A DNA stretch of 41,538 bases from Actinomycetota bacterium (GTDB lineage: Bacteria > Actinomycetota > UBA4738). Numbering within the stretch: the first letter of the stretch is position 1; each line of letters opens with the position of its first letter. This document shows positions 1,715 through 24,811 of this stretch, piece after piece. A program made the position numbers and the translations under genes. The stretch is taken from NCBI GenBank assembly GCA_036721725.1, contig DAIMKN010000003.1:1-41538 (forward strand). Direction: 5' to 3'. The notes beneath the pieces were generated by a model, which made no database searches, was not told the origin of the DNA, and was given only the letters and a program-made list of their open reading frames with translations.

Positions 1715-1752
1715 GCTAACGTCCCCACGCCCAGCCAGGAGAGGTGCAGGAT

Positions 1753-2358
1753 ATGGGTCGTTGGCGACGGGGGGTCCAGCTGGGGGTAGGGCTGATCCTG
1801 GGCCTAGCCCTTCTTGGCGTCGCGTTTTGGCGCGGAGCGGGGCCACCTGCGCCGCGAGCGGCCCCGGGACCCGGCGTGGGCTATCCCTTGAACCTGCCTG
1901 CGTTCCAGGGCGCGCACCCTGTGACGCTCGAAGCGGCTCGAAGCGCGATGGGCGGCAGCCTCCCGCTCCCGAACTCTGCCGATGCATCGACCGCCGACGT
2001 CCAGAGCGTCTGGCTCAATTCCAGCACGGCCGAAGTGGACATCTACTTCGGGTCCGGGGTGCGGTTGCTCGAGGAGCCAGGCTCGGGCGAGTCTCAAACC
2101 GTGATCCAGGCGGAAGACCAAGCAGCCGTGCAACAGAACGGAGGCGACTCGAAGCTCGCCACGATTGATGGGGTCACGGCTGTTGTAACCGCCCGAGATT
2201 TCTCTGGGAACGGCCAGTGTGGGACCCCGGGCGTCGACTGCATCCCCCCGCAGCAGAACCCGAGCGATGTCACCATGATCCTTAACGGATTCTCGGTCGA
2301 ACTTACCGCGGATTGGCCAGTAGATCAGTTGGTCGCGGTGGCGAACACCCTGTCATGA
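1753..2358 (+). CDS. membrane-anchored or secreted protein, possibly DUF4367/LolA-like C-terminal domain
   Basis: AGGAGAGG at 1736-1743 precedes ATG 1753. The N-terminus MGRWRRG plus a hydrophobic stretch (LGVGLILGLALLGVAF) looks like a signal anchor. The C-terminal ...VELTADWPVDQLVAVANTLS resembles DUF4367 ends, from memory only. GC and GC3 are lower than in neighbouring genes. Confidence 0.5.
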   Translation: MGRWRRGVQLGVGLILGLALLGVAFWRGAGPPAPRAAPGPGVGYPLNLPAFQGAHPVTLEAARSAMGGSLPLPNSADASTADVQSVWLNSSTAEVDIYFGSGVRLLEEPGSGESQTVIQAEDQAAVQQNGGDSKLATIDGVTAVVTARDFSGNGQCGTPGVDCIPPQQNPSDVTMILNGFSVELTADWPVDQLVAVANTLS

Positions 2359-2491
2359 AACACGAGTCCGGGAGAGGAAGCTCCCGAATGCTTGCTCTCC
2401 CGCAGGTTCGCCGAGCCAACTGGCTCGCAGAAGTCCCCGAGTGTTTGGGCGACGCGCGCCGTCCTCACCTAGCTCCTCGTTGACCGGAACG

Positions 2492-2719
2492 ATGCGTGGT
2501 CTGTACTGGTTGGCGGCTGGTGTCGTCCTAGCCACGTTTGTCATCGCGGTCCTCCTTCCACATCACTGCTACTATCCGCTCGGCCCCCCGGCCAAGCCTG
2601 GCTATTGCACGGGTGCCGGTTCGTTGCTTCGGAGCGGCATCGTTCTTGGTGGCATCATCGCTGGCGTTCTCGTCGGAGTAGGCGCGCGCTGGCTGGGACG
2701 AAAGGCGAAGCGACGATAG
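2492..2719 (+). CDS. small two-helix membrane protein, about 75 aa
   Basis: ATG 2492 (MRGLYWLAAGVVLATFVIAVLL...) with a second hydrophobic segment GIVLGGIIAGVLVGVGA and a basic tail. Atypical composition; no family assigned. Confidence 0.35.
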   Translation: MRGLYWLAAGVVLATFVIAVLLPHHCYYPLGPPAKPGYCTGAGSLLRSGIVLGGIIAGVLVGVGARWLGRKAKRR

Positions 2720-2962: not shown

Positions 2963-3925
2963 ATGCCGGACATGGAGACCCCGCACTACGAGAAGATCGC
3001 CCGGGTCGGCTATTCGGGGAGCCTGTACATCCTGGCGTTCGACCACCGCGGGTCGTTCCAGAAGAAGATGTTCGGCATCCCCGGCACGCCGAACGCGGAG
3101 GAGTCGGCCCGGATCTCCGACGCCAAGACCCTCATCTTCGAAGGCTTCCAGGAGGCCATCGCTCAGGGCGCTCCCAGGGATGCCGCGGGCCTGCTGGTCG
3201 ACGAACAGTTCGGCGCGGAGATCGCCCGAACGGCCAAGCATGAGGGGTACCTGTTCGCGATGCCGGTGGAGAAGTCGGGGCAGGACGAGTTCGACTTCGA
3301 CTACGGCGAGGACTTCGGCACGCACATCCTGGACTTCGATCCGACGTTCTCCAAGGTCCTGGTGCGCTACAACCCCGACGGCGACCGGGAGATGAACGCG
3401 ACCCAACTGGTCAAGCTGAAGAAGCTCTCCGACTGGCTTCACGACAATGGCCGGAAGTTCCTGTTCGAGCTCCTGGTGCCGGCCGAGCCCGCCCAGCTCG
3501 AGAGCGTCGGCGGCGACGCGGGCCGCTACGACAAGGAGGTCCGTCCGGGACTCATGGTGACCGCCATCCGCGACATCCAGGCCGGCGGGGTGGAGCCCGA
3601 CATCTGGAAGATCGAGGGCATCGACACGGCCGAGGACTGCCAGAAGATCGCGGCGCAAGCGAGGTCGAACGGCCGCGACGACGTGGTCTGCGTGGTCCTG
3701 GGGCGCGGGGCGAACGACGACGCGGTGGTCAACTGGCTGCAGCAGGGTGCGAGCGTCCCGGGCTACGTGGGGTTCGCCATCGGCCGGACCATCTGGTGGG
3801 ACGCGCTGAAGGCCTACCTGGCCTCCGAGACCGACCGCAGCGCGGCGGTGAAGCAGATCGCCACGAACTTCCTTCGGATGATCGAGGTCTACACCGCCGC
3901 GTCGGGGGACCAGAACCACATCTAG
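2963..3925 (+). CDS. DUF2090 / Cgl0159-family (beta/alpha)8 aldolase-like protein
   Basis: GGAAGGAG precedes ATG 2963. The 320-aa product (YILAFDHRGSF..., VLVRYNP..., FLFELLVP..., DIWKIEG..., GFAIGRTIW) matches my recollection of the IolC C-terminal / DUF2090 class I aldolase-like family. Confidence 0.7.
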   Translation: MPDMETPHYEKIARVGYSGSLYILAFDHRGSFQKKMFGIPGTPNAEESARISDAKTLIFEGFQEAIAQGAPRDAAGLLVDEQFGAEIARTAKHEGYLFAMPVEKSGQDEFDFDYGEDFGTHILDFDPTFSKVLVRYNPDGDREMNATQLVKLKKLSDWLHDNGRKFLFELLVPAEPAQLESVGGDAGRYDKEVRPGLMVTAIRDIQAGGVEPDIWKIEGIDTAEDCQKIAAQARSNGRDDVVCVVLGRGANDDAVVNWLQQGASVPGYVGFAIGRTIWWDALKAYLASETDRSAAVKQIATNFLRMIEVYTAASGDQNHI

Positions 3926-3963
3926 AGGTCGGCGTTCGCCACGTGAAGGGAGGGAGTGAGGGG

Positions 3964-4167
3964 ATGTCCGTCATCAAGACGATCGACCTGGTCGGCGTAT
4001 CGTCGAAGTCCTGGCGCGACGCGGCCGAACAGGCGCTGGCCGAGGCGACCAAGACGCTCCGCGGCGTGGAGGGTATGGACGTCCTGGAGACCAGCGCCGT
4101 GGTCGAGGGCGACCGGATCAAGGAGTTCCACACGCACGTCAGGATCCGGTTCCGCATCGAACGCTGA
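3964..4167 (+). CDS. dodecin family flavin-binding protein, 67 aa
   Basis: GAAGGGAGGGAG precedes ATG 3964. MSVIKTIDLVGVSSKSWRDAAEQALAEATKTLRGV...FHTHVRIRFRIE follows the dodecin pattern (compare the M. tuberculosis Rv1498A-type sequence). Confidence 0.8.
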   Translation: MSVIKTIDLVGVSSKSWRDAAEQALAEATKTLRGVEGMDVLETSAVVEGDRIKEFHTHVRIRFRIER

Positions 4168-4185
4168 AACCGAATAGGGGGAGCG

Positions 4186-5178
4186 ATGGAGTTCGGCGTC
4201 TGCTTCATGTGCGACCCGCCCGTGTCGCGGGTCGTGGCGATGACCCAGCGTGCCGAGGCCGCCGGGTTCGACTACACCTGGCTGTGGGACTCCCACATCC
4301 TGTGGGAGGAGGTCTATCCGATCTTCGCGCTCATGGCCACGGGTACCGAACGCATCCGGATCGGTCCCTGCGTGACGAACCCGGCCACCCGCGACGTCAC
4401 GGTCACCGCGAGCGCCATGGCCACGCTGAACGAGATCTCGCAGGGGAGGATGGTCGTCGGGATGGGGCGGGGCGACAGCGCGCGGCGGGTCATCGGCAAG
4501 AAGCCCGTGTCGGTGGAGGAGATGGAGCTGGCCTGCCGCCGCATCAAGGACCTGGCCGAGGGCCGGGAGATCGACTATGACGGGACGCCGCTCACGCTGA
4601 AGTGGTCGCAGGGCCATCCGCTGGAGATCTGGGTGGCGGCGTACGGCCCGAAGGCGCTGCGCGCGGCGGGACGGGTCGCCGACGGCCTCATCATGCAGCT
4701 CGCCGACCCCTACATCGTGGAGTGGTCGCTCCCCTACCTCCGCCAGGGCGCGGAAGAGGCCGGCCGCGACCCGGCATCGATCAAGCTGATGTGCGCGGCC
4801 CCCGCCTACATCACCGACGACCTGGCTCATGCCAGGGACGAGGTTCGGTGGTTCCCGGCGCTCGTGTCGAACCACGTGGTCGACCTGGTGTCGCGCTACG
4901 CGGAAACCGAGCTGCCCAGGGAGCTCACCGATTTCATCGCCGCCCGCGACCACTACGACTACGCCGACCACGGGCGGACCGGCGCCGAACACGCCGCGTT
5001 CGTCACCGACGAGGTGGTGGACCGGTTCTGCGTGCTGGGGACGGCGGAGGAGGTTCGACGCAAGCTCTCGGAGTTGCAGGGGCTCGGCATGGACCAGTTC
5101 AACATCTACTCGATGGTCGATGATCCCGAGGGGGTCATCGACGCGTTCGGGCGTGACATCATCCCGGCCTTCACATAG
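4186..5178 (+). CDS. luciferase-like (LLM) oxidoreductase, Mer-like / putatively F420-dependent
   Basis: 330-aa TIM-barrel LLM pattern (FDYTWLWDSH, IRIGPCVTNPATR, GRMVVGMGRGDS, WVAAYGPKAL) and a length typical of the Mer/F420 LLM clade. Cofactor assignment is inference. Confidence 0.8.
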   Translation: MEFGVCFMCDPPVSRVVAMTQRAEAAGFDYTWLWDSHILWEEVYPIFALMATGTERIRIGPCVTNPATRDVTVTASAMATLNEISQGRMVVGMGRGDSARRVIGKKPVSVEEMELACRRIKDLAEGREIDYDGTPLTLKWSQGHPLEIWVAAYGPKALRAAGRVADGLIMQLADPYIVEWSLPYLRQGAEEAGRDPASIKLMCAAPAYITDDLAHARDEVRWFPALVSNHVVDLVSRYAETELPRELTDFIAARDHYDYADHGRTGAEHAAFVTDEVVDRFCVLGTAEEVRRKLSELQGLGMDQFNIYSMVDDPEGVIDAFGRDIIPAFT

Positions 5179-5206
5179 AGGGCGGGAGGGAGAGAGGAGG
5201 CAAAAC

Positions 5207-6052
5207 GTGGCCACGGTTCGAGCGGCCGTCATCCAGTGCAACGCGAACATGCCCAAGCAGGAGGCCATCGACAAGCACATCGAGCTGATCGCCAAGGCCG
5301 CCGCCGACGGCGCGGAGGTCACCTGCCTCCAGGAGATCTTCCACGGCCCGTACTTCCCGGCCGAACAGGACCCGAAGTGGTACGACACGGCCGAGCCCGA
5401 GGACGGCCCGACCATCACCCGGATGCGAGAGGTGGCCGCGCAGCACGGCATGGTCCTGATCGTCCCGTGGTACGAGGAGGCCCAGACCGGCGTCTACTAC
5501 AACTCCGCGGTGGTCATCGAGAAGGACGGCTCGGTGGCCGGCAAGTACCGCAAGTCCCACATCCCCCACGTCGGCCCGTGCTTCTGGGAGAAGTTCTACT
5601 TCAAGCCGGGGAACCTGGGCTACCCGGTGTTCGACACGAGCGTCGGGCGGATCGGACTCATCATCTGCTACGACCGGCATTTCCCGGAGATCGCTCGAGC
5701 GCTCGGGCTGAAGGGCGCCGAGCTGGTGTTCAACCCGAGCGCCACCGTGGAGTCGCTCTCGAAGTACCTGTGGGAGCTCGAACAGCCCGCCCATGCCGTG
5801 GCGAACGGGTTCTGGATCGGCGCCGTCAACCGGGTGGGTGTGGAAGCGCCGCTGTCCACCGCGAAGTTCTACGGTTCGAGCTACTTCTGCAACCCGCGCG
5901 GGCAGATCGTGGCCCAAGCCTCGGACACCGAGGACGAGGTCCTGGTGGCGGACCTCGACCTCGGCATGATCCGGGAGGTCCGCAACACGTGGCAGTTCCT
6001 CCGGGACCGCCGGCCCGAGACCTACGGTGAGCTGACGGAGATGCTGCCATGA
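5207..6052 (+). CDS. nitrilase-superfamily amidohydrolase, beta-ureidopropionase (N-carbamoyl-beta-alanine amidohydrolase) type
   Basis: GAGAGGAGG precedes GTG 5207. The Glu-Lys-Cys triad context is present (CLQEIF, YRKSHIP, LIICYDRHFPE). The gene is operonic with dihydropyrimidinase-pathway genes. Confidence 0.8.
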   Translation: MATVRAAVIQCNANMPKQEAIDKHIELIAKAAADGAEVTCLQEIFHGPYFPAEQDPKWYDTAEPEDGPTITRMREVAAQHGMVLIVPWYEEAQTGVYYNSAVVIEKDGSVAGKYRKSHIPHVGPCFWEKFYFKPGNLGYPVFDTSVGRIGLIICYDRHFPEIARALGLKGAELVFNPSATVESLSKYLWELEQPAHAVANGFWIGAVNRVGVEAPLSTAKFYGSSYFCNPRGQIVAQASDTEDEVLVADLDLGMIREVRNTWQFLRDRRPETYGELTEMLP

Positions 6053-7374
6053 CCTCCGGGTCCGACAGCGGAGCGGATGGGGGGGCGGCGGAGCTGCTCG
6101 AACGGACCCGCAAGGTCCTGCCGAACTGGCTGGCCATCTACTACAAGGAGCCCATCGAGCTCGTTCGAGGCGAGGGCGCGCACGTGTGGGACTCGGCCGG
6201 ACGCGAGTACCTGGACTTCTTCGGTGGGATCGTCACCACGATCAGCGGCCACGTCGTGCCGAAGCTGGTCGAGGCGCTGACGGAGCAGGCGAACAAGATC
6301 GCCCACACCTCGACCGTGTACCTGATCCGGCCGATGGTCGAGCTGGCCGAGAAGCTGACGGGCCTGTCGCCGGTGGAGATGCCGGCCAAGGCGTTCTTCG
6401 TCGGCAGCGGGACCGAGGCGGTGGAGGCGGCGCTGCTGTTCGCCACCACCTGGCGGCGGTCGAACGAGATCATCGCGCTGCGCAACTCGTACCACGGGCG
6501 GTCGTTCGGCGCGATCGGCGTGACCGGGAACAAGGGCTGGTCGGCCACGTCGTTCAGCCCGCTCAACGTGAGCTACGCGCTGGCGCCGTACTGCTACCGG
6601 TGTCCGTTCGGGCTGACGTATCCCTCGTGCGGCGTGGCGTGCGCCGAGGACCTCCGCAACGTCATCGAGACCACCACCACGGGTGAGCCCGCCGCCATGA
6701 TCGCCGAGCCCATCCAGGGCGTGGGCGGGTTCGTCACGCCGCCGCCCGAGTACTTCGGCATCGTGAAGTCGATCCTGGACGAGTTCGGCATCCCGTTCAT
6801 CGCGGATGAGGTCCAGACCGGGTTCGGACGGACGGGCGAGGCGTTCTGGGGGATCGAGAGCTACGGCGTGGCGCCCGACGCCATCGTGTGCGCCAAGGGG
6901 CTCGGCAACGGCATGGCCATCGGCGCGGTGGTGGCGCGGGAGGACATGGTCGACTCGATCCGTTCGAACTCCATCTCGACGTTCGGCGGCAATCCGCTCC
7001 AGGCCACGTACGCACTGGCGAACCTGGCGAACATCGAGGAGAACGATCTGCAGTCGAACGCCCGGCGGGTCGGCAAGTATCTGATGGAAGGGTTGAAGGA
7101 GCTTGAGGACCGCTACGACGTGGTCGGGGAAGTGCGCGGTAAGGGCCTGATGATCGGCGTCGAACTGGTCAAGGACGGCGAGTCGAAGGCGCCGCATCCC
7201 GACGGCGCCGCCCAGACCATGGAGTCCGCGAAGGAGCAGGGACTGCTGCTCGGCAAGGGCGGCCTGTACGGCAACGTGTTGCGCATCTCCCCGCCGCTGG
7301 TCATCACCGAAGAAGACGCCCAGCGCGCCATCGAAACCCTCGACGTCGCCTTCCGCGAAGTCCAGGCCGGATAG
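6049..7374 (+). CDS. class III PLP aminotransferase (beta-alanine/aminoisobutyrate:pyruvate or 2-oxoglutarate type)
   Basis: ATGA overlap with the upstream gene. Motifs GSGTEAVE, DEVQTGFGRTG and the PLP lysine in CAKGLGNG are present. Confidence 0.9.
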   Translation: MTSGSDSGADGGAAELLERTRKVLPNWLAIYYKEPIELVRGEGAHVWDSAGREYLDFFGGIVTTISGHVVPKLVEALTEQANKIAHTSTVYLIRPMVELAEKLTGLSPVEMPAKAFFVGSGTEAVEAALLFATTWRRSNEIIALRNSYHGRSFGAIGVTGNKGWSATSFSPLNVSYALAPYCYRCPFGLTYPSCGVACAEDLRNVIETTTTGEPAAMIAEPIQGVGGFVTPPPEYFGIVKSILDEFGIPFIADEVQTGFGRTGEAFWGIESYGVAPDAIVCAKGLGNGMAIGAVVAREDMVDSIRSNSISTFGGNPLQATYALANLANIEENDLQSNARRVGKYLMEGLKELEDRYDVVGEVRGKGLMIGVELVKDGESKAPHPDGAAQTMESAKEQGLLLGKGGLYGNVLRISPPLVITEEDAQRAIETLDVAFREVQAG

Positions 7375-7378
7375 GTCG

Positions 7379-7804
7379 TCAGCCAGCGGAGGCGGGGAGG
7401 AGTTCGAATGCTTCGACGTGCCTGGGACGAACGACCGTGAAGTGGCGGCGGTCCAGCGTGGCGATCTTCGGCTCGCCCAAGCGCTCCGCGATGGCCACCA
7501 CCGCGGCGTCGACGAACCCGAGGTCGAGGTCCGCGTACCGGTCCATCAAGTCCGTCACCCGCGAATAGTCCTCGGCGAGAAGATCCTCGACTCGATAGGC
7601 GCCCGTTCCGATGTCCGCGAGGAGCGCGATCATCGCGCCCGGCCCGAGGCGTTCGGATGCCAGGTAGTCCACCTCGGGGAGGACGGGAGAAGGGATCACC
7701 AGAGGCTCAGTGGCCTCCTCGATCAGCTTCCGGCAGGCGCGATGGGCCCTGTCCCGTCGGTCGAGGGACGCGTACAGCGGTCCTGCGTCGAGGATCAGCG
7801 CCAC
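7379..7804 (-). CDS. vapC: PIN-domain ribonuclease toxin VapC
   Basis: 141 aa. The N-terminal LILDAGPL acidic residue, the mid LPEVD and the C-terminal FVDAAVVAIAERL...TLDRRHF are typical of PIN. It overlaps the upstream antitoxin by 10 nt. Confidence 0.85.
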   Translation of the reverse strand: MALILDAGPLYASLDRRDRAHRACRKLIEEATEPLVIPSPVLPEVDYLASERLGPGAMIALLADIGTGAYRVEDLLAEDYSRVTDLMDRYADLDLGFVDAAVVAIAERLGEPKIATLDRRHFTVVRPRHVEAFELLPASAG

Positions 7805-8019
7805 GACCGGGGAGGGACCCGCTTCGTGGCAGTCGTCTCCGCGGTTCGGTTCGGCGACGAGGATCCGACCCCAAGGCTCCGCGGCCGGGGCCGGTACTCA
7901 TCGGCCTTCGCCTCCAGCGCTTCTCGCATCACGAACGCCAGCGACACCCCTCGATCCCGCGCCAGCGCCCGAAGGCGCTGTAGCGTCTCTTCGTCCGCCA
8001 TGATCGTGGTGCGCGTCAT
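7795..8019 (-). CDS. vapB: ribbon-helix-helix (CopG-like) antitoxin VapB
   Basis: 74 aa. ...ADEETLQRLRALARDRGVSLAFVMREALE is an RHH pattern. It lies directly upstream of, and overlaps, the PIN gene. The start could also be ATG 8001. Confidence 0.75.
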   Translation of the reverse strand: MTRTTIMADEETLQRLRALARDRGVSLAFVMREALEAKADEYRPRPRSLGVGSSSPNRTAETTATKRVPPRSWR

Positions 8020-8163
8020 GCCAGCATTATGCCACAGATGTCATCACGCGGGGAACGTCCGGGTGAGGCTGGTTACGGGCTGCGTAGTCCGGGCCGCCAG
8101 ATCAGCGGTTAGATGGGTGGATCACCGCCCCGCGGTTGTCGAGCTCGCACGGCGAGGCCAACT

Positions 8164-8210
8164 GATCGACCGCCACCAAGCGAGCCACCCTTGCATCAAG
8201 GCGGTCGATC
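8164..8210. promoter_or_regulatory. perfect 11-bp inverted repeat GATCGACCGCC-N25-GGCGGTCGATC in the vapB / dihydropyrimidinase intergenic region
   Basis: Arms at 8164-8174 and 8200-8210 are exact reverse complements. The region is non-coding and lies between divergent transcription units. Confidence 0.3.
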
Positions 8211-8369
8211 TGCTAAGGCCCGCGTCCGCATGGTCGCCGCCGCTGGCGCAAGCGTGGAGGCGCCGCGAGCCTCGCAAGCCCAGCCCGTCCTCAACTGATC
8301 GTCGAGTGTTTGCGATGAGGAGCGGGGTGTCCATAGACTGCCGAAGCACGAGTAGGAGGGGTGGGCTCG

Positions 8370-9743
8370 ATGCGGACGTTGATCGCGAACGGGACGGTGG
8401 TGACGGCCGCCGAAACTGTGCGGGCTGATGTGGTGATCGAGGACGAGAAGGTCGCCGCGGTGGGGCTCGGGCTCGACGTGACGGCGGACAAGGTGATCGA
8501 CGCTACCGATCGCTTCGTGATGCCGGGGGGCGTGGACGTTCATACACACTTCGACCTCCCGTTCGGGGGGTCGTTCTGTTCGGACGACTTCGGCACGGGG
8601 ACGCGGGCGGCGGCGTTCGGTGGGACCACCACGTGCATCGATTTCGCGGTGCAGGACGCGGGCGGGTCGCTGCGGCAGGGCCTGGACACGTGGTTCGCCA
8701 AGGCCGAGAAGGCGCAGATCGACTACGGCCTCCACGTCATCATCCGCGAGGTCAACGACGAAACGCTCAAGGAGATGGACGAACTCGTCGGCGAGGGCGT
8801 CACGAGCTTCAAGTTGTTCATGGCCTACCCGGGCGTGTTCATGTCCGACGACGCGTCGATCTTCCGGGCCATGACGCAGGCGGCGGCGAGCGGCGCGACC
8901 ATCCTGATGCACGCGGAGAACGGGGGGCCCATCGATGTCCTCGTTCAGCGTTCGTTGGCGGCCGGGAAAACGGATCCGATCGACCACGGACTGACCCGTC
9001 CTGCGTCCATGGAGGGCGAGGCCGTGCATCGGGCGTTCGCGCTTGCGGAGCTGGCGGGCTGCCCCACTTACATCGTCCACCTGTCCAGCCGCGACGCTTT
9101 GACCGAGGTGCAGGAGGCCCGGGCCCGGGGGCAGGCCGCGTTCGCCGAGACCTGTCCCCAGTACCTCTACCTGAGCCAGGACGACATGGCCAGGCCGGGG
9201 TTCGAGGGGGCGAAGTTCGTCTGTTCGCCGCCGCTCCGAACGGCCGACCATCAGGAGGATCTGTGGAAGGGCCTGGCGAGCGGCGACCTCCAGGTGGTCT
9301 CCACCGACCACGCGCCGTTCAACTACCACGGCCAGAAGGACCTGGGCGTGGGCAACTTCGCCAAGATCCCGAACGGCCTGCCCAGCGTGGAGGACCGGTT
9401 CACGCTCATGTACCAGGGCGTGGTGAACGGCCACATCGGGCTGAACCGGTTCGTCGATCTGGTGGCGACCACGCCGGCCAGGATGTTTGGGCTGTATCCG
9501 CGCAAGGGGACCATCGCCGAGGGGTTCGACGCGGATATCGTGGTGTTCGACCCGAATCACGAACGAACGATCTCGGCGGCCACGCACCACATGAACGTGG
9601 ACTACTCGTGCTACGAGGGGTTGTCCGTGAAGGGGCTGCCCGAGGTCGTGCTGCAGCGGGGCAAGGTTCTGGTGGAGAACGGCGCGTGGCACGGCAAGGA
9701 GGGCGGCGGGAAGTTCCTGCCTCGCAGTCGGATGACGACATGA
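8370..9743 (+). CDS. dihydropyrimidinase / D-hydantoinase
   Basis: AGGAGG at 8354-8359 precedes ATG 8370 (the track start GTG 8361 is less likely). Metal ligands GGVDVHTH and the carboxylated-Lys motif SFKLFMAY are present, plus HAENG and STDHAPF. Confidence 0.9.
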   Translation: MRTLIANGTVVTAAETVRADVVIEDEKVAAVGLGLDVTADKVIDATDRFVMPGGVDVHTHFDLPFGGSFCSDDFGTGTRAAAFGGTTTCIDFAVQDAGGSLRQGLDTWFAKAEKAQIDYGLHVIIREVNDETLKEMDELVGEGVTSFKLFMAYPGVFMSDDASIFRAMTQAAASGATILMHAENGGPIDVLVQRSLAAGKTDPIDHGLTRPASMEGEAVHRAFALAELAGCPTYIVHLSSRDALTEVQEARARGQAAFAETCPQYLYLSQDDMARPGFEGAKFVCSPPLRTADHQEDLWKGLASGDLQVVSTDHAPFNYHGQKDLGVGNFAKIPNGLPSVEDRFTLMYQGVVNGHIGLNRFVDLVATTPARMFGLYPRKGTIAEGFDADIVVFDPNHERTISAATHHMNVDYSCYEGLSVKGLPEVVLQRGKVLVENGAWHGKEGGGKFLPRSRMTT

Positions 9744-9762
9744 CGACGACGGGGGAGAAGCC

Positions 9763-11259
9763 ATGACCGATGCACGCGTGCAGAGCTTCATCGGCGGACG
9801 GTGGACCGATTCCGGCTCGGACGACGGGCAGGTCGATCCGATCCCCAACCCCGCCACCGGCGAGACCCTTGCGCTCCTGCCCTATTCGAGCGCCACCGAG
9901 ATCGAGGCGGCGGTTCGGGCTGCGCGCCAGGCGTTTCCGGCGTGGGCGAACACCCCGGCACCCGAACGCGCCCAGATCATGTTCCGGCTGAAGCAGCTGA
10001 TGGAGGACCACTTCGAGGAGATGGCCCTGCTGGTGACGCGGGAGAACGGGAAGACGCTCCCCGAGTCGCGGGGCGAGGTGCGGCGCGCCATCGAGGTGGT
10101 GGAGGTGGCGTGCGGCGCGCCGATGCTGCTCATGGGCACCAACCTCGACCAGATCGCCGACGGCATCGATGAGGAGCTCGTTCGATTTCCGGTCGGCGTG
10201 GTGGCCGGCATCACGCCGTTCAACTTCCCGAACATGGTGCCGCTGTGGATGATCCCGCTGGCCCTGGTGTGCGGGAACACGTTCGTCCTCAAGCCGTCGC
10301 AGCGGACGCCGCTGTCGGGCGTGAAGATCGGCGAGCTGCTCCACGCGGCGGGCGTCCCCGAGGGCGTGTTCAACATCGTCCACGGAGGCAAGGAGGCCGT
10401 GGACGCGCTGCTGAGCCACCCCGAAGTGGACGCGGTGTCGTTCGTCGGTTCGGCCCAGGTCGCCGCGTACGTCTACGCGACCGGAGCTTCCCACGGGAAG
10501 CGGGTCCAGGCGTTGGGCGGGGCGAAGAACCACCTGCTGGTGATGGACGACGCCGACCTCGAGAAGAGCGTCACCGCCCTGATCTCCTCCGCGTTCGGCA
10601 ACGCAGGGCAGCGCTGCCTTGCGGGGAGCGTCGCCGTCGGCGTCGGTTCCGTGGGGGACGCTCTGGTCGGGGAGCTGGTCGAACAGACGGGCCGGCTGAC
10701 GCTCGGGCCCGGCGAGGACCCGGCCACCGACATGGGCCCGGTCATCCGCGACGAACGCCGCAAGGAGCTCATCGGCTACATCGACCAGGGCCGGGAGGCG
10801 GGCGCCGAACTTTCCGCCGACGGCCGCGGCCTCGGGCCGAGCGACGGATTCTTCCTGGGCCCCACCATCTTCGACAAGGTGACGCCGGATATGGCGCTGT
10901 GGCGCGACGAGATGTTCGGCCCGGTGCTCTCGGTGGTGCGGGCCGCCGACATCGACGAGGCGCTGAAGGTCCTGAACGCCAGCACGTACGGCAACGCCGC
11001 CTCGATCTTCACGGCCTCCGGCGCGAACGCCCGCGAGTTCAAGCGCCGGGCCGAAGCGGGGATGCTGGGCGTGAACGTCGGGGTCGCCGCGCCCATGGCC
11101 TTCTTCCCGTTCACCGGGTGGAAGTCGAGCTTCTACGGCGACCTCCACGCCACGGGCGCGGACGGCGTTCGGTTCTACACGCGCCAGAAGGTGGTCACCA
11201 GCCGGTGGTGGCTCGCTGCGAAGGTCGACGCCTCCGCGCCGGAGGGCCGGGGCGCCTGA
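9763..11259 (+). CDS. mmsA: CoA-acylating methylmalonate/malonate-semialdehyde dehydrogenase
   Basis: 498-aa ALDH with FNFP, VCGNTFVLKPS, the catalytic GQRCLAG and the MmsA-type end FPFTGWKSSFYGDLH. Confidence 0.9.
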   Translation: MTDARVQSFIGGRWTDSGSDDGQVDPIPNPATGETLALLPYSSATEIEAAVRAARQAFPAWANTPAPERAQIMFRLKQLMEDHFEEMALLVTRENGKTLPESRGEVRRAIEVVEVACGAPMLLMGTNLDQIADGIDEELVRFPVGVVAGITPFNFPNMVPLWMIPLALVCGNTFVLKPSQRTPLSGVKIGELLHAAGVPEGVFNIVHGGKEAVDALLSHPEVDAVSFVGSAQVAAYVYATGASHGKRVQALGGAKNHLLVMDDADLEKSVTALISSAFGNAGQRCLAGSVAVGVGSVGDALVGELVEQTGRLTLGPGEDPATDMGPVIRDERRKELIGYIDQGREAGAELSADGRGLGPSDGFFLGPTIFDKVTPDMALWRDEMFGPVLSVVRAADIDEALKVLNASTYGNAASIFTASGANAREFKRRAEAGMLGVNVGVAAPMAFFPFTGWKSSFYGDLHATGADGVRFYTRQKVVTSRWWLAAKVDASAPEGRGA

Positions 11260-11267: not shown

Positions 11268-13271
11268 TCACACCTTGAACTCGAAGGCTCCGATGTCGCA
11301 GGCCGGGCCTTGGGGCCGGGTCACGCCCCGCTGATCCACCGGGACGAGGCATCCCACCGTCGGGATCGTATCGATGGCCGGACTCCCGGTCAGGAGCGCC
11401 AGCGTCAGCGTGGGTCCCCCGTTGTTCGCCAGTGCTCCCAGCTTCGGATCGATCTTCAGCTTGTCGGTGGGCTTGGAGGCGAACGTGCACCCGGCAGTCG
11501 TGCCGAGGAGATTGTGGCCGCCCGAAGCGATGTTCCCGGAGCAATCCGGTCCATCTCCGCCAGACTGGGCCTTGTTCAACGCCAGGATCGTTGCGCGCAG
11601 CGTGATGGTGCCGGGGCCGTCCTGGAGCAGGCCGCCGCCGTGCTGGGCGATCACGCTACCTGTGCCGCTCACGACGTTTCGGGCCACCGTTGAGTTCGTC
11701 AGCACCATCGTCTGGACGGCGGCGTCGATCCCCCCGCCGAGGATGACGCTCCCCCCGGTGGCGGGCGGCGAGTTGGAGCTGATCCCGTTGCCGGTGATGG
11801 TGGAGTTCGTAAACGAGACGGGCGAAGAGGAGGACTGGAGGTCGACCCCGCCCCCGCCACTCCAAGCCGTATTCGACCCCTGAGCACTGGCGTTGATCGT
11901 GTTCCGGCTGACCGTCGAACTCGTCATCACGAGCGCTCCGGACACGAGGATCCCCCCGCCAAGCCCCTTCGAGTTCGAGCCGCTGGAGTTCACGCTCAAC
12001 CCATCTTGGTCGAAGGTGGAGAGGCTGACCTTCACGCGCTCGCCGGTCTGGTCGAACAGCCCGCCGCCTTCGGCGAACGCGGGCGACGCCCCCGAGGCCG
12101 TGACCGTGTTCATGGAAATGGACGAGGAGGTGATGGACAGGGTACCGGCGGCGACGTCCAGGCCGCCCCCTTCCCCCACCCCCTCGTCCGAGGCGGCGGC
12201 CACGACGTGGTTGTCGACCACCTGCACCCCACTGAGCGTGGTCGAGACCGCTGAGGTCGAAAGCGCTCCGCCGACCGCGACCGCGCCGTCGCCGTCGCCC
12301 GTGGCCCATGCTCGGTTGTTCGCGAACGTGGAGTCCGAGAGGGTCACGGTTCCGGGAGCGACGCTGAGGTACACAGCCCCGCCGTAGGCCGAAGCGTCGA
12401 CACCCGAGCTCGTGGCGGTGGTCACGTTGCCGCTCGCCGTCGATCCCGTGAAGCTCACGGGGGTGCCGGAGGCTTCGGCCTCCACCGCGGCCCCGAACGC
12501 GTTCGCCGACGAGGCGGCCGAGGCGGCGGCGCGGTTCCCGTCGATGTGGCTCGAGGTGACAACGAGGGGCGCGCTCGACTCGTGCTCGATGCCGCCGCCG
12601 AACGCGTCCGCGGCGGTCCCGAAGGCGACGGGCCCTGTGGATAGGGCCGCGGCCTCGTTCGAGCTCACGGTGGAGTTCACCAGCGTGAGCGGCCCGTTGG
12701 AGAGGATCCCGCCGCCCAACGCGTACACCACGCCTTCCCCGGTGCTCGACGCCTCAGCCCGGTTGTCGACGACCGAAGAGGACCTGAGAGTGATCGATCC
12801 GCCGGTCGAGGAGATGCCTCCCCCGCTCGCGATCGTCGGGCCCATCGCCACGTTGTCCTGGACGGTGACCGATCGCAACGAGAGCGCTCCGCCGGCATGA
12901 GAGATCCCGCCGTCGTTCGGACTCGAGCCACCGGTGATCATCAGATCGATCAAGTGGACCGTTGGCGTACCCGAGATCGTGAGGGTCGACCCCAGGCCTT
13001 AACCGTCGAGCGTCGCCGTGGTCGACCCCTGGAGCGTGAGGTCCTTGTCGATGGTGAAGTTCCCAGAGCACCTGCCCTCGACGGACAGCGTGCTCCCAGG
13101 GGTCGCAGCGGTGATCTTCGCCTGGAGGTCTTGGCTCGAGCAGTTCACCTTGATGGTGGCGGCAGCCGCGGGCGAAGCCCATACAGCCAATGCGGCCACG
13201 AGGGTGGCCGAAACGAAGGATGCTCCCCTCCGCCGAGATCGCGACCCGGGGCTCACGGTGTGCTGACTCAC
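11268..13271 (-). pseudogene. secreted right-handed beta-helix (Pmp-repeat) protein with a choice-of-anchor-Q-like C-terminus, interrupted by one in-frame TAA
   Basis: GGGAGGAGAG precedes GTG 13271. The signal peptide is SRRRGASFVSATLVAALAVWASPAAA. Many GGGI/GGAL beta-helix repeats are present. The C-terminus is ...GGHNLLG...DPKLGALANNGGPTLTLAL..GSPAID...DQRGVTRPQGPACDIGAFE. Track ORFs 12999..13376 and 11268..12953 are in the same frame and are separated only by TAA (12999-13001): ...TTATLDG*GLGSTLTISG... Confidence 0.7.
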
Positions 13272-14873: not shown

Positions 14874-16151
14874 GTGCCGCTCTCGATCCTGGTGGGAACC
14901 CAGTGGGGCGACGAGGGCAAGGGGAAAGCCACCGACCTCCTGTCCGCCCGCAGTGACTTCGTCGTCCGCTATCAGGGCGGCAACAATGCCGGCCACACGG
15001 TCTCGGTCGGCGGGCAGCTCTTCAAGCTCCACCTCATCCCCTCCGGCGTCCTGTATCCGCACGTCACCCCCGTCATCGCCGATGGCGTGGTGGTCGATCC
15101 GAACGTCCTGCTGGCGGAGATGGACGCGCTGGCCAAGCGAGGCGTCGATCCCTCGCGGCTGAAGCTCAGCGGCAACGCCCACCTCATCCTGCCCTACCAC
15201 CTGGAGCTCGACAAGCTGACCGAACGCTACCTGGGCAAGCACGCCCTGGGCACGACCAAGCGCGGCATCGGCCCGGCCTACGCGGACAAGGCCTCGCGCA
15301 TCGGCCTGCGGGTCCAGGACCTCACCGACCCCCGGATCTTCCGCGAGAAGCTCGACGTGGTCCTCAAGGAGAAGAACCTCCTGCTGACCAAGGTCTACAA
15401 CCGCCTCCCCATGAAGGCCGAGGAGATCGCCGAACAGTACCTGGCCATGGGCGCGCGCCTCGCGCCCCACATCACCGACACCAGCGGGATGCTGTGGCGG
15501 GCGCTCCGCGACGGCAAGCGCGTGATGCTGGAGGGCGCCCAGGGAACGCTGCTCGACATCGACCACGGGACGTATCCGTTCGTCACGTCGTCCTCGCCCG
15601 TGGCGGGAGGGGCGCTCGCCGGGAGCGGGCTGGGACCGAAGGAGGTGGACGCGGTCATCGGCGTGGCCAAGGCCTACGTGACCCGCGTCGGATCCGGGCC
15701 GTTCCCCACCGAGGATCTGGGGCCGGCCGGGGCGCACCTCGGCGACGTGGGGCAGGAGTTCGGCACGACCACGGGACGGGCCCGGCGGTGCGGGTGGTTC
15801 GACGCGGTGCTGCTGCGCTATGCGGCGCGGGTGAACGGCCTGACCGAACTGTTCGTGACGAAGCTGGATGTGCTAAGCGGCTTGGAGGAGATCAAGGTGT
15901 GCACGGCGTACCGCTACGAAGGGCAGCGGTACGAGGACTTCCCGCCCCACCAGTCGATCTTCCACAAGGCAGAGGCGATCTACGAGGAGGTCGAAGGCTG
16001 GACGGAGGACCTCACCGGCGTCACGCGGTTCGAGGACCTCCCCCCCGCGGCGGCAAAGTACGTCCGGCGGGTGGGCGACCTGGCGGGGGTGCCCGTTCGG
16101 CATCTCTCCATCGGGCCGGCCCGGGAACAGACGCTCACGGTGGAGGACTGA
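14874..16151 (+). CDS. purA: adenylosuccinate synthase
   Basis: N-terminal GTQWGDEGKGK P-loop, GGNNAGHTV, TKRGIGPAY, GTTTGRxRRCGW. Confidence 0.95.
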   Translation: MPLSILVGTQWGDEGKGKATDLLSARSDFVVRYQGGNNAGHTVSVGGQLFKLHLIPSGVLYPHVTPVIADGVVVDPNVLLAEMDALAKRGVDPSRLKLSGNAHLILPYHLELDKLTERYLGKHALGTTKRGIGPAYADKASRIGLRVQDLTDPRIFREKLDVVLKEKNLLLTKVYNRLPMKAEEIAEQYLAMGARLAPHITDTSGMLWRALRDGKRVMLEGAQGTLLDIDHGTYPFVTSSSPVAGGALAGSGLGPKEVDAVIGVAKAYVTRVGSGPFPTEDLGPAGAHLGDVGQEFGTTTGRARRCGWFDAVLLRYAARVNGLTELFVTKLDVLSGLEEIKVCTAYRYEGQRYEDFPPHQSIFHKAEAIYEEVEGWTEDLTGVTRFEDLPPAAAKYVRRVGDLAGVPVRHLSIGPAREQTLTVED

Positions 16152-16156
16152 GGTCC

Positions 16157-17446
16157 GTGAAGGTGCTGGTGGTCGGGGGCGGCGGACGCGAACACGCGCT
16201 GTGCGCATCCCTCGCCCGCCGCGAGGACGTGGACCACCTGTTCGCCGCGCCCGGCAACGCCGGCATGGCCGAGATGGCCACGCTCATCCCCATCTCGGCG
16301 GGCGACGTGGAGGGGCTGGTGGAGTTCGCCGAACGCGAATCGATCGATCTCACGGTGGTCGGGCCGGAGGCCCCGCTGGTGGCGGGCCTGGCGGACGAGA
16401 TGACGCTGCGCGGCCTCCCCGTGTTCGGCCCGACCAGTGACGCGGCGCGGCTGGAGGGCTCGAAGGCGTGGGCCAAGGACCTGTGCCGGCGACACGGCAT
16501 CCCCACGGCGGGCTCGGAGGAGTTCGAGGCGTTCGACGCGGCGATGGCCTACGTCGAACAGCTCGAGCCGCCCATCGTGGTCAAGGTCGACGGGCTCGCG
16601 GCGGGCAAGGGCGTCACGGTGGCTGAGGACCATCACCAGGCCGAACAGGCCCTCCGGGGCGCGCTAGTCAACAAGGTGTTCGGCGAGGCGGGGCTGAAGG
16701 TGCTGGTGGAAGAGTACCTCACCGGCATGGAGGTCTCCGCGCTGGCACTGACCGACGGCATGACGGTCCGGCCGCTGGCCCTGGCCCAGGACTTCAAGCG
16801 AGCGATGGACGGCAACCGGGGGCAGAACACCGGTGGCATGGGGGCGTTCAGCCCGCTGCCGTTCGTGGGCGGCGACATCGAAGCGCGCATCACCGTGGAC
16901 ATCCTGGAAGCGGTGGGACGCGCGTTGCGGGACGAGGGCGTGGAGTTCCGTGGGGTGCTGTTCGCCGGCGTCATGCTGACCGACGCCGGTCCCCGGGTGC
17001 TCGAGTTCAACTGCCGGTTCGGCGATCCGGAGACCCAGGTCATCCTGCCCCGGCTGACCTCGGACCTGGCCGGCGCCTTGCGGGCGTGCACGAACGGCAC
17101 GCTCGCGGACCACGAACTCACGTGGACGCCCCAGGCGTGCGTGGGCGTGGTGGTGGCCTCCGCCGGTTACCCCGGTCCGGTCCAGGCGGGCAGGCCGATC
17201 GCCGGCCTGGCGTCGGCGGCCGAGGTGGACGGGGTACAGGTGTTCCACTCGGGAACGTCGGTGCGCGACGGGCAGGTGGTGACCTCCGGCGGGCGGGTGC
17301 TGACCGTGACCGCGCTGGGCTCCGATCAGGAAGAGGCTCGCGCCCGCGCCTACGAGGCCTGTTCGCGGATCCGGTTCGACGGAATCACCTATCGGCGCGA
17401 CATCGCCCGGGTGACGGGCGGCGTGAGGATCGAGGGAACGGCGTGA
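16157..17446 (+). CDS. purD: phosphoribosylamine-glycine ligase
   Basis: I trimmed the track ORF to GTG 16157 (VKVLVVGGGGREHAL...). ATP-grasp motifs are present: VVKVDGLAAGKGV, NTGGMGA, EFNCRFGDPE. Confidence 0.9.
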   Translation: MKVLVVGGGGREHALCASLARREDVDHLFAAPGNAGMAEMATLIPISAGDVEGLVEFAERESIDLTVVGPEAPLVAGLADEMTLRGLPVFGPTSDAARLEGSKAWAKDLCRRHGIPTAGSEEFEAFDAAMAYVEQLEPPIVVKVDGLAAGKGVTVAEDHHQAEQALRGALVNKVFGEAGLKVLVEEYLTGMEVSALALTDGMTVRPLALAQDFKRAMDGNRGQNTGGMGAFSPLPFVGGDIEARITVDILEAVGRALRDEGVEFRGVLFAGVMLTDAGPRVLEFNCRFGDPETQVILPRLTSDLAGALRACTNGTLADHELTWTPQACVGVVVASAGYPGPVQAGRPIAGLASAAEVDGVQVFHSGTSVRDGQVVTSGGRVLTVTALGSDQEEARARAYEACSRIRFDGITYRRDIARVTGGVRIEGTA

Positions 17447-17967
17447 GCGAACCGACGTCCGGGGCTTCCGAGTCACCGGATCAGCAGCGGTGGCCGGAGG
17501 AGGGCCAGCCGCTCGTCGGCATCCTGGTGGGTTCGGCCTCCGACCTGCCGGTGATGCAGCCCGCCTCCACCATCCTGCGGACGCTCGGCGTCCCGCACGA
17601 GCTGCGCGTCGTCTCGGCCCACCGCAACCCCGACCTGGTCGACGAGTACGCCCGGACGGCCGACGAACGCGGCATCGTCGTCCTGATCTGCGGCGCGGGG
17701 ATGGCGAACCACCTGGCGGGCGCGGTTGCGGCTCGAACGGCCCTGCCGGTCATCGGCGTGCCGCTGTCCGGTTCGAAGCTGCAGGGGATGGACTCGCTGT
17801 TGTCAACGGTGCAGATGCCGAAGGGCGTGCCGGTGGCTACGGTGGCGGTGGACGGCGCGGTCAACGCGGCCATCCTCGCGGCGCAGATCCTGGCCGTTCG
17901 GGACCCCGACATGAAGGCAAAGCTCTACACGTTCAAGGACCACCTCGCCGCGGGCTACAAGCCGTGA
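17443..17967 (+). CDS. purE: N5-CAIR mutase (class I PurE-like)
   Basis: GTGA overlap with purD. Motifs VGILVGSASD, SAHR and GAGMANHLAGAVAARTALPVIGVP are present. Confidence 0.85.
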   Translation: MSEPTSGASESPDQQRWPEEGQPLVGILVGSASDLPVMQPASTILRTLGVPHELRVVSAHRNPDLVDEYARTADERGIVVLICGAGMANHLAGAVAARTALPVIGVPLSGSKLQGMDSLLSTVQMPKGVPVATVAVDGAVNAAILAAQILAVRDPDMKAKLYTFKDHLAAGYKP

Positions 17968-19283
17968 TCCCTCGCTACACATTGCCTGAGATGGCCGCGG
18001 TGTGGTCCGAGGAGTCGAAGCTGGCCGCCTGGCTCCGCATCGAGATCCTGGCGTGCGAAGCGTGGTCCCGCCTGGGTCACATCCCGTCGGAGGACATGGC
18101 GCAGATCAAGGAGCGAGCGGTCGCTCCCACGCCGGAGCGGGTGGCCGAACTGGAGGCGGTGACCCACCACGACGTGGCGGCGTTCGTCCAGGCGGCGGCC
18201 GAACCCATCGGGGAGGCCGGACGGTGGATCCACTTCGGCCTGACGTCGTCGGACGTGCTGGATACCGCGCTGGCATTGCAGTTGCGCGAGGCCGGTGACC
18301 TGCTCTTGGCCAAGCTCGAACACCTGTTGGCCGTGGTGAAGCGGCGGGCGCTGGAGCATCGCGACACCTTGTGCATCGCTCGAACGCACGGCGTCCACGC
18401 CGAACCGACCACGTTCGGCCACAAGTTCGCGTTGTGGGCGTTCGAGCTGGACCGCGACCGGTCGCGGCTGCGGACGGCGCGGGAAGCGGTGAGCGTGGGG
18501 AAGCTGTCGGGCGTGGTCGGGACGTACTCGCAGATCGACCCGTCGGTGGAGGAATACGTCTGCGCCGCACTGGGATTGCGCCCGGCGGAGGCCGCGTCGC
18601 AGGTGGTGCAGCGCGACGTTCACGCCGAGTTCATGTGGGCCCTGGCCATCACAGCGGCGACGCTGGAGAAGATCGCGCTGGAGGTCCGCCACCTGGCTCG
18701 AACGGAGGTCCGGGAGGTAGAGGAGCCGTTCGGCCCGGGACAGAAGGGTTCGAGCGCCATGCCCCACAAGCGCAACCCCGTTCTGTCCGAACGCATCTGC
18801 GGCCTGGCCCGCGTCATCCGGGCGAACCTCCAGCCGGCGCTGGAGGACGTGGCGCTGTGGCACGAACGCGACATCTCCCATTCCAGCGTCGAACGCGTCA
18901 TCCTCCCCGACTCCACACTGGCCCTCGACTTCCTGCTGCACGACACGGCTCGGTTGCTGGACGGTCTGCGCGTCTTCCCCGACCGGATGTGGTCGAACAT
19001 GGAGAGCACCGGCGGGTTGTTCTTCTCCCAGAAGGTGCTGCTGGCGTTGATCGACGCCGGCCTGTCCCGGGACGACGCCTACGCCATCGTCCAGCGCGCC
19101 GCAGCCGAGACGTGGGAACGCGGCGCGCACTTCAAGGAAGCCGTGTGGTCCGAACTCTCCTCGAAGGCCTCGCCACCACTGTCGAAGGAGGCGTTCGACG
19201 CGCTGTTCAAAGTGAAGCCCTTCGTCGAACACCTCGACGGCGTGTTCGCCCGTGTCGAGAAGCTGGAGGTGGCCGAACCGTGA
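17964..19283 (+). CDS. purB: adenylosuccinate lyase
   Basis: GTGA overlap with purE. Fumarate-lyase signature GSSAMPHKRNP, plus THHDV and LTSSDVLDT. Confidence 0.95.
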   Translation: MIPRYTLPEMAAVWSEESKLAAWLRIEILACEAWSRLGHIPSEDMAQIKERAVAPTPERVAELEAVTHHDVAAFVQAAAEPIGEAGRWIHFGLTSSDVLDTALALQLREAGDLLLAKLEHLLAVVKRRALEHRDTLCIARTHGVHAEPTTFGHKFALWAFELDRDRSRLRTAREAVSVGKLSGVVGTYSQIDPSVEEYVCAALGLRPAEAASQVVQRDVHAEFMWALAITAATLEKIALEVRHLARTEVREVEEPFGPGQKGSSAMPHKRNPVLSERICGLARVIRANLQPALEDVALWHERDISHSSVERVILPDSTLALDFLLHDTARLLDGLRVFPDRMWSNMESTGGLFFSQKVLLALIDAGLSRDDAYAIVQRAAAETWERGAHFKEAVWSELSSKASPPLSKEAFDALFKVKPFVEHLDGVFARVEKLEVAEP

Positions 19284-20448: not shown

Positions 20449-20451
20449 GGC

Positions 20452-21790: not shown

Positions 21791-21796
21791 GGAGCG

Positions 21797-22413: not shown

Positions 22414-22443
22414 GCCATCGTCGCCCGGTAGGCTGGGGCGCAA

Positions 22444-24693: not shown

Positions 24694-24799
24694 CGACCTT
24701 ACTGGTGGTACGGCCGCCTTGTGCGTAGTTCTGGCGCGAGCCTCGCGTCTTGTCACTCCGGTGCTTCGGCGGGGCGGGAGTTCCGGGTGGGGGCGGTGC

Positions 24800-24805: not shown

Positions 24806-24811
24806 GAACCG

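Follow-up and report, generated by a model that had tools for sequence, protein, structure and literature searches.

Gene content of the locus

We analysed a 41.5-kb stretch of DNA (the window) from an Actinomycetota bacterium of the GTDB lineage UBA4738 (assembly GCA_036721725.1, contig DAIMKN010000003.1). The window is one complete metagenomic contig with a G+C content of ~69%. The subject of this study is a gene cluster at positions 2963-11259, in which genes of the reductive (Pyd) pathway of pyrimidine catabolism stand next to a gene for an oxidoreductase of the LLM superfamily. The best relatives of the window proteins were found in Actinomycetota metagenome-assembled genomes (MAGs), and metagenome runs from soil and biocrust contained near-identical DNA. 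Two further assemblies of the same species exist, ENA contig L083 and contig L084 of NCBI assembly GCA_003531005.1. These matches indicate that the source is an uncultured soil or biocrust actinobacterium.

As shown in Table 1, the cluster encodes enzymes for steps 2-5 of the Pyd pathway, as an earlier note on this DNA had proposed. The dihydropyrimidinase (PydB) and the CoA-acylating (methyl)malonate-semialdehyde dehydrogenase (MMSDH) both scored above the cutoffs of their NCBIfam models. The dihydropyrimidinase has an alternative GTG start at 8361, and the start set by the gene caller in L083 corresponds to window position 8370. The closest PDB relative of the CN hydrolase was N-carbamoylputrescine amidase (E 2.5e-56), followed by fly and human beta-ureidopropionase (E ~5e-50) and D-carbamoylases. 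Its solved relatives were N-carbamoyl-amine hydrolases throughout, and no equivalog cutoff was reached. With its substrate taken from the gene context, this protein is probably a beta-ureidopropionase (PydC function). The aminotransferase was assigned at the family level only, and its closest PDB relatives include GABA aminotransferases and amino-acid racemases. From the same context it is probably a beta-alanine/beta-aminoisobutyrate transaminase.

The 330-aa LLM protein had been described in the earlier note as a Mer/F420-type enzyme tightly spaced with the amidohydrolase, and we found its gene 28 nt from that of the CN hydrolase. The dodecin and DUF2090 genes upstream of it are also real. 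Dodecin residues 3-66 aligned to positions 1-64 of the PF07311 model, which is the whole ~65-residue domain, and the protein matched PDB dodecins (E 1.6e-6). The DUF2090 protein weakly matched the aldolase half of an IolC-aldolase fusion model and had no sequence relative in the PDB.

The LLM and dodecin genes had also been described as co-operonic with the pathway genes. The run from DUF2090 to the aminotransferase is tightly spaced: the DUF2090 and dodecin genes are separated by 38 nt and the dodecin and LLM genes by 18 nt, and the CN hydrolase and aminotransferase genes overlap by 4 nt. However, a minus-strand vapBC pair, which the earlier note had missed, and a 341-nt gap split off the dihydropyrimidinase gene, so the cluster consists of at least two transcription units and is not one operon. 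Scans of the cluster for promoters, terminators and Rfam families gave nothing above chance. An Arg-rich plus-strand ORF at 7418-8428 (336 aa) was rejected as a pathway gene: it had no Pfam/NCBIfam match and is a wrong-frame artefact, and the genuine coding sequence in this stretch is vapBC on the opposite strand. In the relatives L001 (14528-15162) and L085 (14877-15511), the same cluster position holds a PIN gene preceded by a small partner gene. The cluster proteins of these relatives are only 77-86% identical to those of the window, which suggests that the vapBC-type insertion is old and has been retained. Between the aminotransferase and the PIN gene, these relatives carry a gene for an ABM-domain (antibiotic biosynthesis monooxygenase-like) protein and/or an MFS transporter (13165-14868 in L085 and 13463-14521 in L001), and neither gene is present in the window.

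Table 1. Positions of the genes of the pyrimidine cluster and of other features in the window.
Feature	Position	Strand	Evidence
DUF2090 class-I-aldolase-like protein	2963-3925	+	PF09863, E 2.4e-38
Dodecin (flavin-binding dodecamer subunit)	3964-4167	+	PF07311, 70.8 bits, E 1.2e-19
LLM oxidoreductase, 330 aa, TIGR03842 family	4186-5178	+	PF00296, E 4e-60; TIGR03842, 451.9 bits
CN hydrolase, N-carbamoyl amidase family	5207-6052	+	PF00795, E 4e-68
Class-III (GABA/beta-alanine-type) aminotransferase	6049-7374	+	PF00202, E 2.5e-98
vapC, PIN-domain toxin	7379-7804	-	ORF translation; PF01850 on the identical gene in L083 and L084
vapB, ribbon-helix-helix antitoxin	7795-8019	-	ORF translation; weak PF01402 (RHH_1) on the identical gene in L084
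Dihydropyrimidinase (PydB)	8370-9743	+	TIGR02033, 578.7 bits (cutoff 393.25)
CoA-acylating MMSDH	9763-11259	+	TIGR01722, 613.5 bits (cutoff 448.5)
ORF, 446 aa	91-1431	+	no Pfam/NCBIfam match; coding-like GC3
ORF, 204 aa, probably secreted	1744-2358	+	no Pfam/NCBIfam match; coding-like GC3
ORF, 92-aa membrane protein	2441-2719	+	no Pfam/NCBIfam match; coding-like GC3
Beta-helix protein	11268-12953	-	
Purine biosynthesis run (purA, purD, purB, purS, purL, purF)	14874-26212	+	
Alpha/beta-hydrolase fused to adenylate/guanylate cyclase domain	36560-37894	+	
Four tRNA genes	38516-39719	-	

Linkage of the LLM gene to pyrimidine catabolism genes

The first enzyme of the Pyd pathway is dihydropyrimidine dehydrogenase (DPD; PydA/PreTA), and the earlier note had reported it absent from the window. 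We found the same. E. coli PreT and PreA gave no tblastn match in the whole window at E<0.01, a search that covers the contig and not the genome. The other large window ORFs encode purine biosynthesis proteins, branched-chain keto-acid dehydrogenase (BCKDH), a transporter and others, and no DHO_dh/Fe-S protein was found among them by Pfam scans. PydA normally co-localises with PydB, and 3419 bacterial PydA candidates have a PydB candidate within ten ORFs (PMC7332683).

We surveyed the neighbourhood of the LLM gene with one genome per species. At least 599 relatives were found, and the best 80 were analysed together with one JGI contig, giving 81 loci. Their LLMs are 51-78% identical to that of the window and come from Actinomycetota, Chloroflexota, Dormibacterota, Acidobacteriota, Binatota and one Bacillota MAG. 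Neighbouring genes were counted by tblastn with the window proteins. A dihydropyrimidinase was found near the LLM in 59 of the 81 loci, a CN hydrolase in 47, a peptidase M20 hydrolase in 26, and either hydrolase in 71. At the 41 loci where 5 kb or more of sequence flanks the LLM in each direction, a dihydropyrimidinase, a beta-ureidopropionase-type hydrolase or both were always present (41/41); dihydropyrimidinase was found in 38 and together with a hydrolase in 37. The MMSDH (15/81) and the aminotransferase (3/81) were far less conserved, which suggests that the LLM tracks the core ring-opening steps. The linkage of LLM and dihydropyrimidinase, on whose conservation in other genomes the earlier note had made its proposal depend, is thus conserved. 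Two plasmid 'hydA' loci, from Paraburkholderia and Arthrobacter, belonged to other hydantoinase contexts and were set aside as uninformative.

The third enzyme is not the same in all loci. Peptidase M20 is a second, unrelated family that supplies beta-ureidopropionase. An M20 'Zn-dependent hydrolase' replaces the CN hydrolase in Gaiellales, Rubrobacteraceae, Thermoleophilia, Solirubrobacteraceae and some Chloroflexota. Its gene usually lies just upstream of the LLM gene (adjacent in L067, L068 and L046, and up to ~2-3 kb away in others), and once it was found downstream on the opposite strand. Since the LLM persists whichever of the two unrelated families provides the third enzyme, chance adjacency cannot explain the linkage.

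The gene order also varies. At 16 of the 18 loci with both genes on the same strand (Actinomycetota, Chloroflexota, Dormibacterota and the Bacillota MAG), the LLM gene lies 17-61 nt upstream of the co-directional CN hydrolase gene, and in the others the distance is 102 and 319 nt. The LLM is divergent from dihydropyrimidinase in Acidobacteriota, and in the cultured Streptomyces sp. BHT-5-2 the order is CN hydrolase-aminotransferase, followed at a distance by dihydropyrimidinase-LLM. Gene orders that differ between phyla suggest repeated selection for proximity. The linkage of LLM and Pyd genes spans at least seven phyla. The locus of the Bacillota MAG (L020, Centralia) has the order LLM (60% identity)-CN hydrolase (80%)-dihydropyrimidinase-M20, and reflects either horizontal transfer or a mis-binned contig.

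NCS1 nucleobase permeases were found in 33 LLM loci, and NMT1-type ABC transporters were also recurrent. In Acidobacteriota, the neighbours of the LLM include nucleoside hydrolases, pyrimidine-nucleoside phosphorylase, a NupC-type transporter, DeoC aldolase and PfkB kinase.

A tblastn search of the 81 loci (1.28 Mb) with PreA and PreT at E<1e-5 found none, except for one 46-bit match to a generic pyridine-nucleotide oxidoreductase, and no other conserved oxidoreductase was present in these loci. As a positive control, the E. coli PreA query matched the PreA encoded on a Deinococcus plasmid with 307 bits, which indicates that the search is sensitive across phyla. This plasmid, NZ_CP034185.1 of Deinococcus psychrotolerans, carries a canonical counterpart of the cluster, in which preA stands where the LLM clusters have the LLM. 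This counterpart also encodes dihydropyrimidinase, cytidine deaminase and an NMT1-type ABC transporter, and its M20 hydrolase shares 52% identity with those linked to the LLM. Only preA is annotated in this cluster; an SDR gene lies upstream, and no preT is annotated.

These data bear on an alternative reading, in which the LLM is an F420-dependent enzyme of the pathway with another substrate and a canonical DPD encoded elsewhere reduces uracil/thymine. A modified pyrimidine, a hydantoin-like ring or a C3 intermediate (malonate semialdehyde or 3-hydroxypropionate) would be candidate substrates. This reading gains from the fact that the window is an entire contig and the remaining genome is unseen, and some 'hydA' loci lie clearly outside Pyd clusters. 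We nevertheless regard it as unlikely, because the LLM follows dihydropyrimidinase and the hydrolases and not MMSDH or aminotransferase, and an MMSDH for the semialdehyde is already encoded in the window. The lack of PreA/PreT or another conserved oxidoreductase in the LLM loci and the preA in the LLM's place in the homologous Deinococcus cluster speak against it as well. In addition, the nucleoside hydrolase, pyrimidine-nucleoside phosphorylase, NupC and NCS1 neighbours point to an ordinary supply of uridine/uracil.

The dodecin and DUF2090 genes had been counted as parts of the system in the earlier note, but this did not hold. Besides the window, only contigs L083 and L084 of the same species carry them, and all 81 related loci lack them; we therefore rejected them as parts of a conserved system and regard them as species-specific neighbours. 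Two relatives with 77-78% identity (L001 and L085) have a PAS-GGDEF-EAL gene upstream in place of dodecin/DUF2090. A role of the dodecin in flavin/deazaflavin buffering, and a tie of the aldolase-like DUF2090 protein to malonate-semialdehyde metabolism, are speculation.

The LLM protein and its predicted cofactor

We next consider what the LLM protein is. It matched TIGR03842 (F420_CPS_4043) over its full length, with residues 2-329 aligned to model positions 1-329 (E 1.2e-135), and its score of 451.9 bits is above the cutoff of 295.45. NCBI labels this model a hypothetical equivalog with the biological process unknown. Among the 25 NCBIfam matches of the LLM at E<=0.001, 17 were F420-dependent LLM families or enzymes. 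The nearest PDB sequence was Mer (1z69, E 2e-39), at ~35% identity as estimated from the HMMER alignment, followed by F420-dependent hydroxymycolic acid dehydrogenase (FGD2/fHMAD), Adf and Fgd. All PDB sequence matches with E <1e-7 were structurally characterised F420-dependent enzymes. The AlphaFold (AF2) model of the LLM had a pLDDT of 84.7. Its top Foldseek matches were Mer structures (TM 0.78-0.83), ranks 1-17 were F420-dependent LLMs, and FMN-dependent LLMs ranked below these. These results place the LLM in the F420-dependent branch of the superfamily, with F420 as its predicted cofactor. More than 8000 close LLM homologues were present in the protein collection.

Since Mer is the nearest characterised relative in sequence and fold, the LLM could be a Mer-type methylene-tetrahydropterin reductase, or an enzyme unrelated to pyrimidines, that is adjacent to the Pyd genes by chance. 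However, its scores were under the cutoffs of both Mer models (TIGR03555/NF002619; 159.5 vs 348.7 and 172.7 vs 276). We aligned 80 TIGR03842 members with Mer and read the residues against a mutational study of Mer (PMC11094777). The loop with the non-prolyl cis-peptide backstop under F420 is kept in the family (GPxVTN; Cys62-Val63 in the window LLM). Asp97 and Gln171 are also conserved; in Mer, the equivalent residues make contact with the deazaflavin/F420 and with the pterin at its pyrimidine ring. In Mer, Glu6 at the end of beta-1 (jMer) is catalytic, and its Gln variant keeps 0.4% of kcat (PMC11094777). The window LLM has Cys6 in place of this residue, and the position is variable across the 80 members. 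The family has conserved residues of its own (W40, R95, S98, R101, W140, Y153, R217, R221-W222-F223 and N229-H230) and a YDYxxH insertion that is absent from Mer. The conserved backstop, Asp97 and Gln171, together with the loss of Glu6 and the family's own residues, suggest a Mer-like F420 site with a different substrate pocket. Thus, the LLM shares the fold and the cofactor-site residues of Mer (PDB 1z69 and 8qpl) but differs from it at position 6, in the insertion, and in a context of pyrimidine catabolism instead of C1 metabolism. Chance adjacency is also at odds with a linkage of this breadth, with its varied gene orders and swapped third enzyme. A Mer orthologue or chance neighbour is therefore highly improbable, and we rejected this reading on scores, context and residues.

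The earlier note had offered as an alternative a RutA-like LLM oxygenase that acts on a pathway intermediate, and we took this to include an FMN-dependent attack on the pyrimidine ring itself. RutA is also a member of the LLM superfamily and acts on uracil, and BLASTP gave 31 bits and 24% identity between the window LLM and E. coli RutA. No RutA model was found among the 25 NCBIfam matches, while the subfamily search that the note had called for put TIGR03842 above its cutoff and Mer below. RutA chemistry is oxygenative, whereas the dihydropyrimidinase of the cluster implies a reductive route. No homologue of RutB, RutC, RutD, RutE or RutF (flavin reductase) was found in the cluster. None of RutB, RutC, RutE and RutF was found in the window, and the sole match there was a weak RutD-like one at 36734-37318, far outside the cluster. 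The window and 84 loci together gave only isolated, unlinked weak Rut matches. FMN-dependent LLMs came below all F420-dependent ones in both sequence and fold searches, and relatives of the LLM share an operon with F420 biosynthesis genes. On these scores and contexts we rejected the RutA-like reading, which has very little probability left.

The operons with F420 biosynthesis genes were found on plasmids. On ten Leisingera plasmids and one plasmid of Paracoccus alcaliphilus, an LLM gene is the last gene of a cofG-cofH-cofD-cofC-cofE-npdG operon, which encodes complete F420 biosynthesis and the NADPH:F420 oxidoreductase Fno. These LLM genes are annotated as TIGR03842 in RefSeq, and their products are 43-45% identical to the window LLM. 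On the Leisingera caerulea plasmid NZ_CP081088.1 (L090; island at 197.6-214.3 kb; also L087 and L088), the cof-npdG-LLM operon is divergent from pntA-pntB-class-III aminotransferase-M20-hydA-NCS1 permease. No preA/preT is annotated in the 28 kb examined there. The L. caerulea orthologue of the LLM is WP_027234022.1. The gene set suggests that the island holds uptake, the Pyd steps except the canonical first enzyme, the LLM and F420 biosynthesis. Formation of F420H2 from NADPH would be covered as well. Next to the cof-LLM island lies a DUF1330 gene in both Leisingera and Paracoccus, and in P. alcaliphilus an ABC transporter lies downstream of the operon.

For the reading in which the LLM is an F420-dependent pathway enzyme with another substrate, these relatives offer some support. 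Fno beside the Leisingera LLM is reversible and leaves the direction open, and the characterised F420-dependent LLMs include alcohol/hemiacetal dehydrogenases (Adf, Fgd and fHMAD).

No cof/fbi gene was found among the window ORFs scanned. F420 biosynthesis genes have been reported in Chloroflexi, Acidobacteria, Firmicutes and Actinobacteria (PMC8498797), and this distribution is compatible with that of the LLM loci. F420 obligately transfers two electrons as a hydride, and its E0' of -340 mV is slightly below that of NAD(P)H (PMC8498797).

A proposed F420-dependent first step

We consider it quite likely that the region is a reductive Pyd cluster in which the TIGR03842 LLM reduces the C5=C6 bond of uracil/thymine with F420H2, replacing DPD. 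The LLM is assigned to step 1 because the saturation of this bond is the sole reduction of the Pyd pathway before ring opening. The earlier note had suggested a non-orthologous uracil/thymine reductase dependent on deazaflavin or flavin; the deazaflavin form of this suggestion is thus supported, at the level of genomes, by the linkage, the loci lacking PreA/PreT, the cof operons and the Mer relatives. From these observations we infer which substrate the LLM uses, which way its reaction runs and which residues take part, and also that the genome has no DPD outside the window.

In the proposed route, the LLM would convert uracil/thymine and F420H2 to dihydrouracil/dihydrothymine. A hydride from C5 of F420H2 would be transferred to C6 of the pyrimidine, and an acid specific to the family would then protonate C5. 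On the model of Mer, the pyrimidine ring would be stacked on the deazaflavin at the TIM barrel's C-terminal face, with Asp97, Gln171, the family-specific Arg, Asn, His and Tyr residues and the YDYxxH insertion keeping it in place. The ring would be opened by the dihydropyrimidinase, and the product would be decarbamoylated to beta-alanine/beta-aminoisobutyrate by the CN hydrolase. After transamination by the class-III aminotransferase, MMSDH would convert (methyl)malonate semialdehyde to acetyl-/propionyl-CoA. The enzymes of steps 2 and 5 are assigned by family; those of steps 3 and 4 are assigned by family with substrates taken from the context. The F420H2 consumed would be restored by Fno or Fgd, from a gene at another site in the genome.

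Several points weigh against this assignment. Three of the 41 well-flanked loci have no nearby dihydropyrimidinase, and the cof-LLM operon of Paracoccus alcaliphilus has none within 10 kb. The window is a single whole contig, and DPD or F420 genes may lie elsewhere in the genome. The proposed role of TIGR03842 is a prediction from genomes, and NCBI lists the family as a hypothetical equivalog without an assigned biological process. Genome context fixes neither the direction nor the substrate of the LLM reaction, and Fno can work in both directions. Among the characterised F420H2-dependent reductions of C=C bonds, most are carried out by FDOR/PPOX-fold enzymes. The one genetically supported uracil-ring reductase, SSGG-03002/NpsU, is likewise of the PPOX class and not an LLM.

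Compared with the known Pyd system (PydA/PreTA, PydB, PydC, PydD and MSDH), the window has the same families for steps 2-5, and the LLM clusters share transporter types with the canonical preA-hydA-ABC-M20 cluster of the Deinococcus plasmid. The DHO_dh/Fe-S/FAD enzyme DPD is absent, and its place is taken by an LLM with a TIM barrel that is predicted to use F420. The LLM is therefore proposed as a functional analogue of PydA and not as a member of the PydA family.

Two published proposals come closest. The first is a putative F420-dependent LLM 'yanthine reductase' in reductive uric-acid clusters of Chloroflexota, proposed from gene neighbourhoods only (PMC12507026, 2025). There, too, a flavoenzyme resembling DPD (YgfK/UacX) gives way to an F420-type PF00296 protein, and a uracil-like ring is reductively dearomatised ahead of an amidohydrolase. 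It differs in its purine/uric acid pathway and in its amidohydrolase partner SsnA, and no F420 variant of the Pyd pathway is given in that paper. The second is SSGG-03002/NpsU, for which genetic evidence indicates that a putative F420/FMN-type enzyme reduces the uracil C5=C6 bond in mureidomycin/napsamycin biosynthesis, and for which attempts at in-vitro activity gave none (PMC10714638). This enzyme, whose detectable relatives are F420 enzymes with a split beta-barrel fold, acts on a uridyl peptide in antibiotic biosynthesis. To take SSGG-03002/NpsU for an LLM would be wrong, since the BLAST table of PMC10714638 shows PPOX-class relatives.

Outside the pyrimidine cluster, the window has three upstream ORFs (Table 1), and its G+C content falls to ~65% around 2-4 kb. 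The purine biosynthesis run lies directly downstream of the pyrimidine cluster and the minus-strand beta-helix gene, and its purS is embedded in an over-long ORF (19252-20448). A cyclase-fused hydrolase gene and four tRNA genes lie further downstream.

In the open full-text literature we found no report that ties an F420-dependent LLM to the Pyd pathway; subscription journals were outside this search, and prior publication is possible. A 2021 review of F420 mentions 'pyrimidine' only for photolyase and FO biosynthesis and not for pyrimidine catabolism, and it states that no experimental study had addressed the role of F420 in bacteria outside Actinobacteria (PMC8498797). The finding is best described as a predicted F420 variant of a known reductive pathway, with strong genomic support. 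It is likely that TIGR03842 proteins are F420H2-dependent uracil/thymine reductases that make up a widespread, unrecognised form of the Pyd pathway in soil Actinomycetota, Chloroflexota, Dormibacterota, Acidobacteriota and others, and that in some Alphaproteobacteria a plasmid F420 operon and Fno chiefly serve the LLM.

If this is true, a function would be given to a large orphan family, whose RefSeq name is only 'TIGR03842 family LLM class F420-dependent oxidoreductase'. In several abundant soil phyla, the gap at the start of pyrimidine catabolism would be closed. The known electron donors of PydA are NADPH, NADH and ferredoxin (PMC7332683), and F420 would be a fourth type of DPD electron donor beside them. 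The complete F420 island of some Rhodobacterales would also be explained. An Fe-S-free enzyme that reduces pyrimidines would be available for biocatalysis, possibly including compounds of the 5-fluorouracil type. F420 would also have a role in central nucleotide/nitrogen recycling, beyond methanogens and mycobacterial redox stress.

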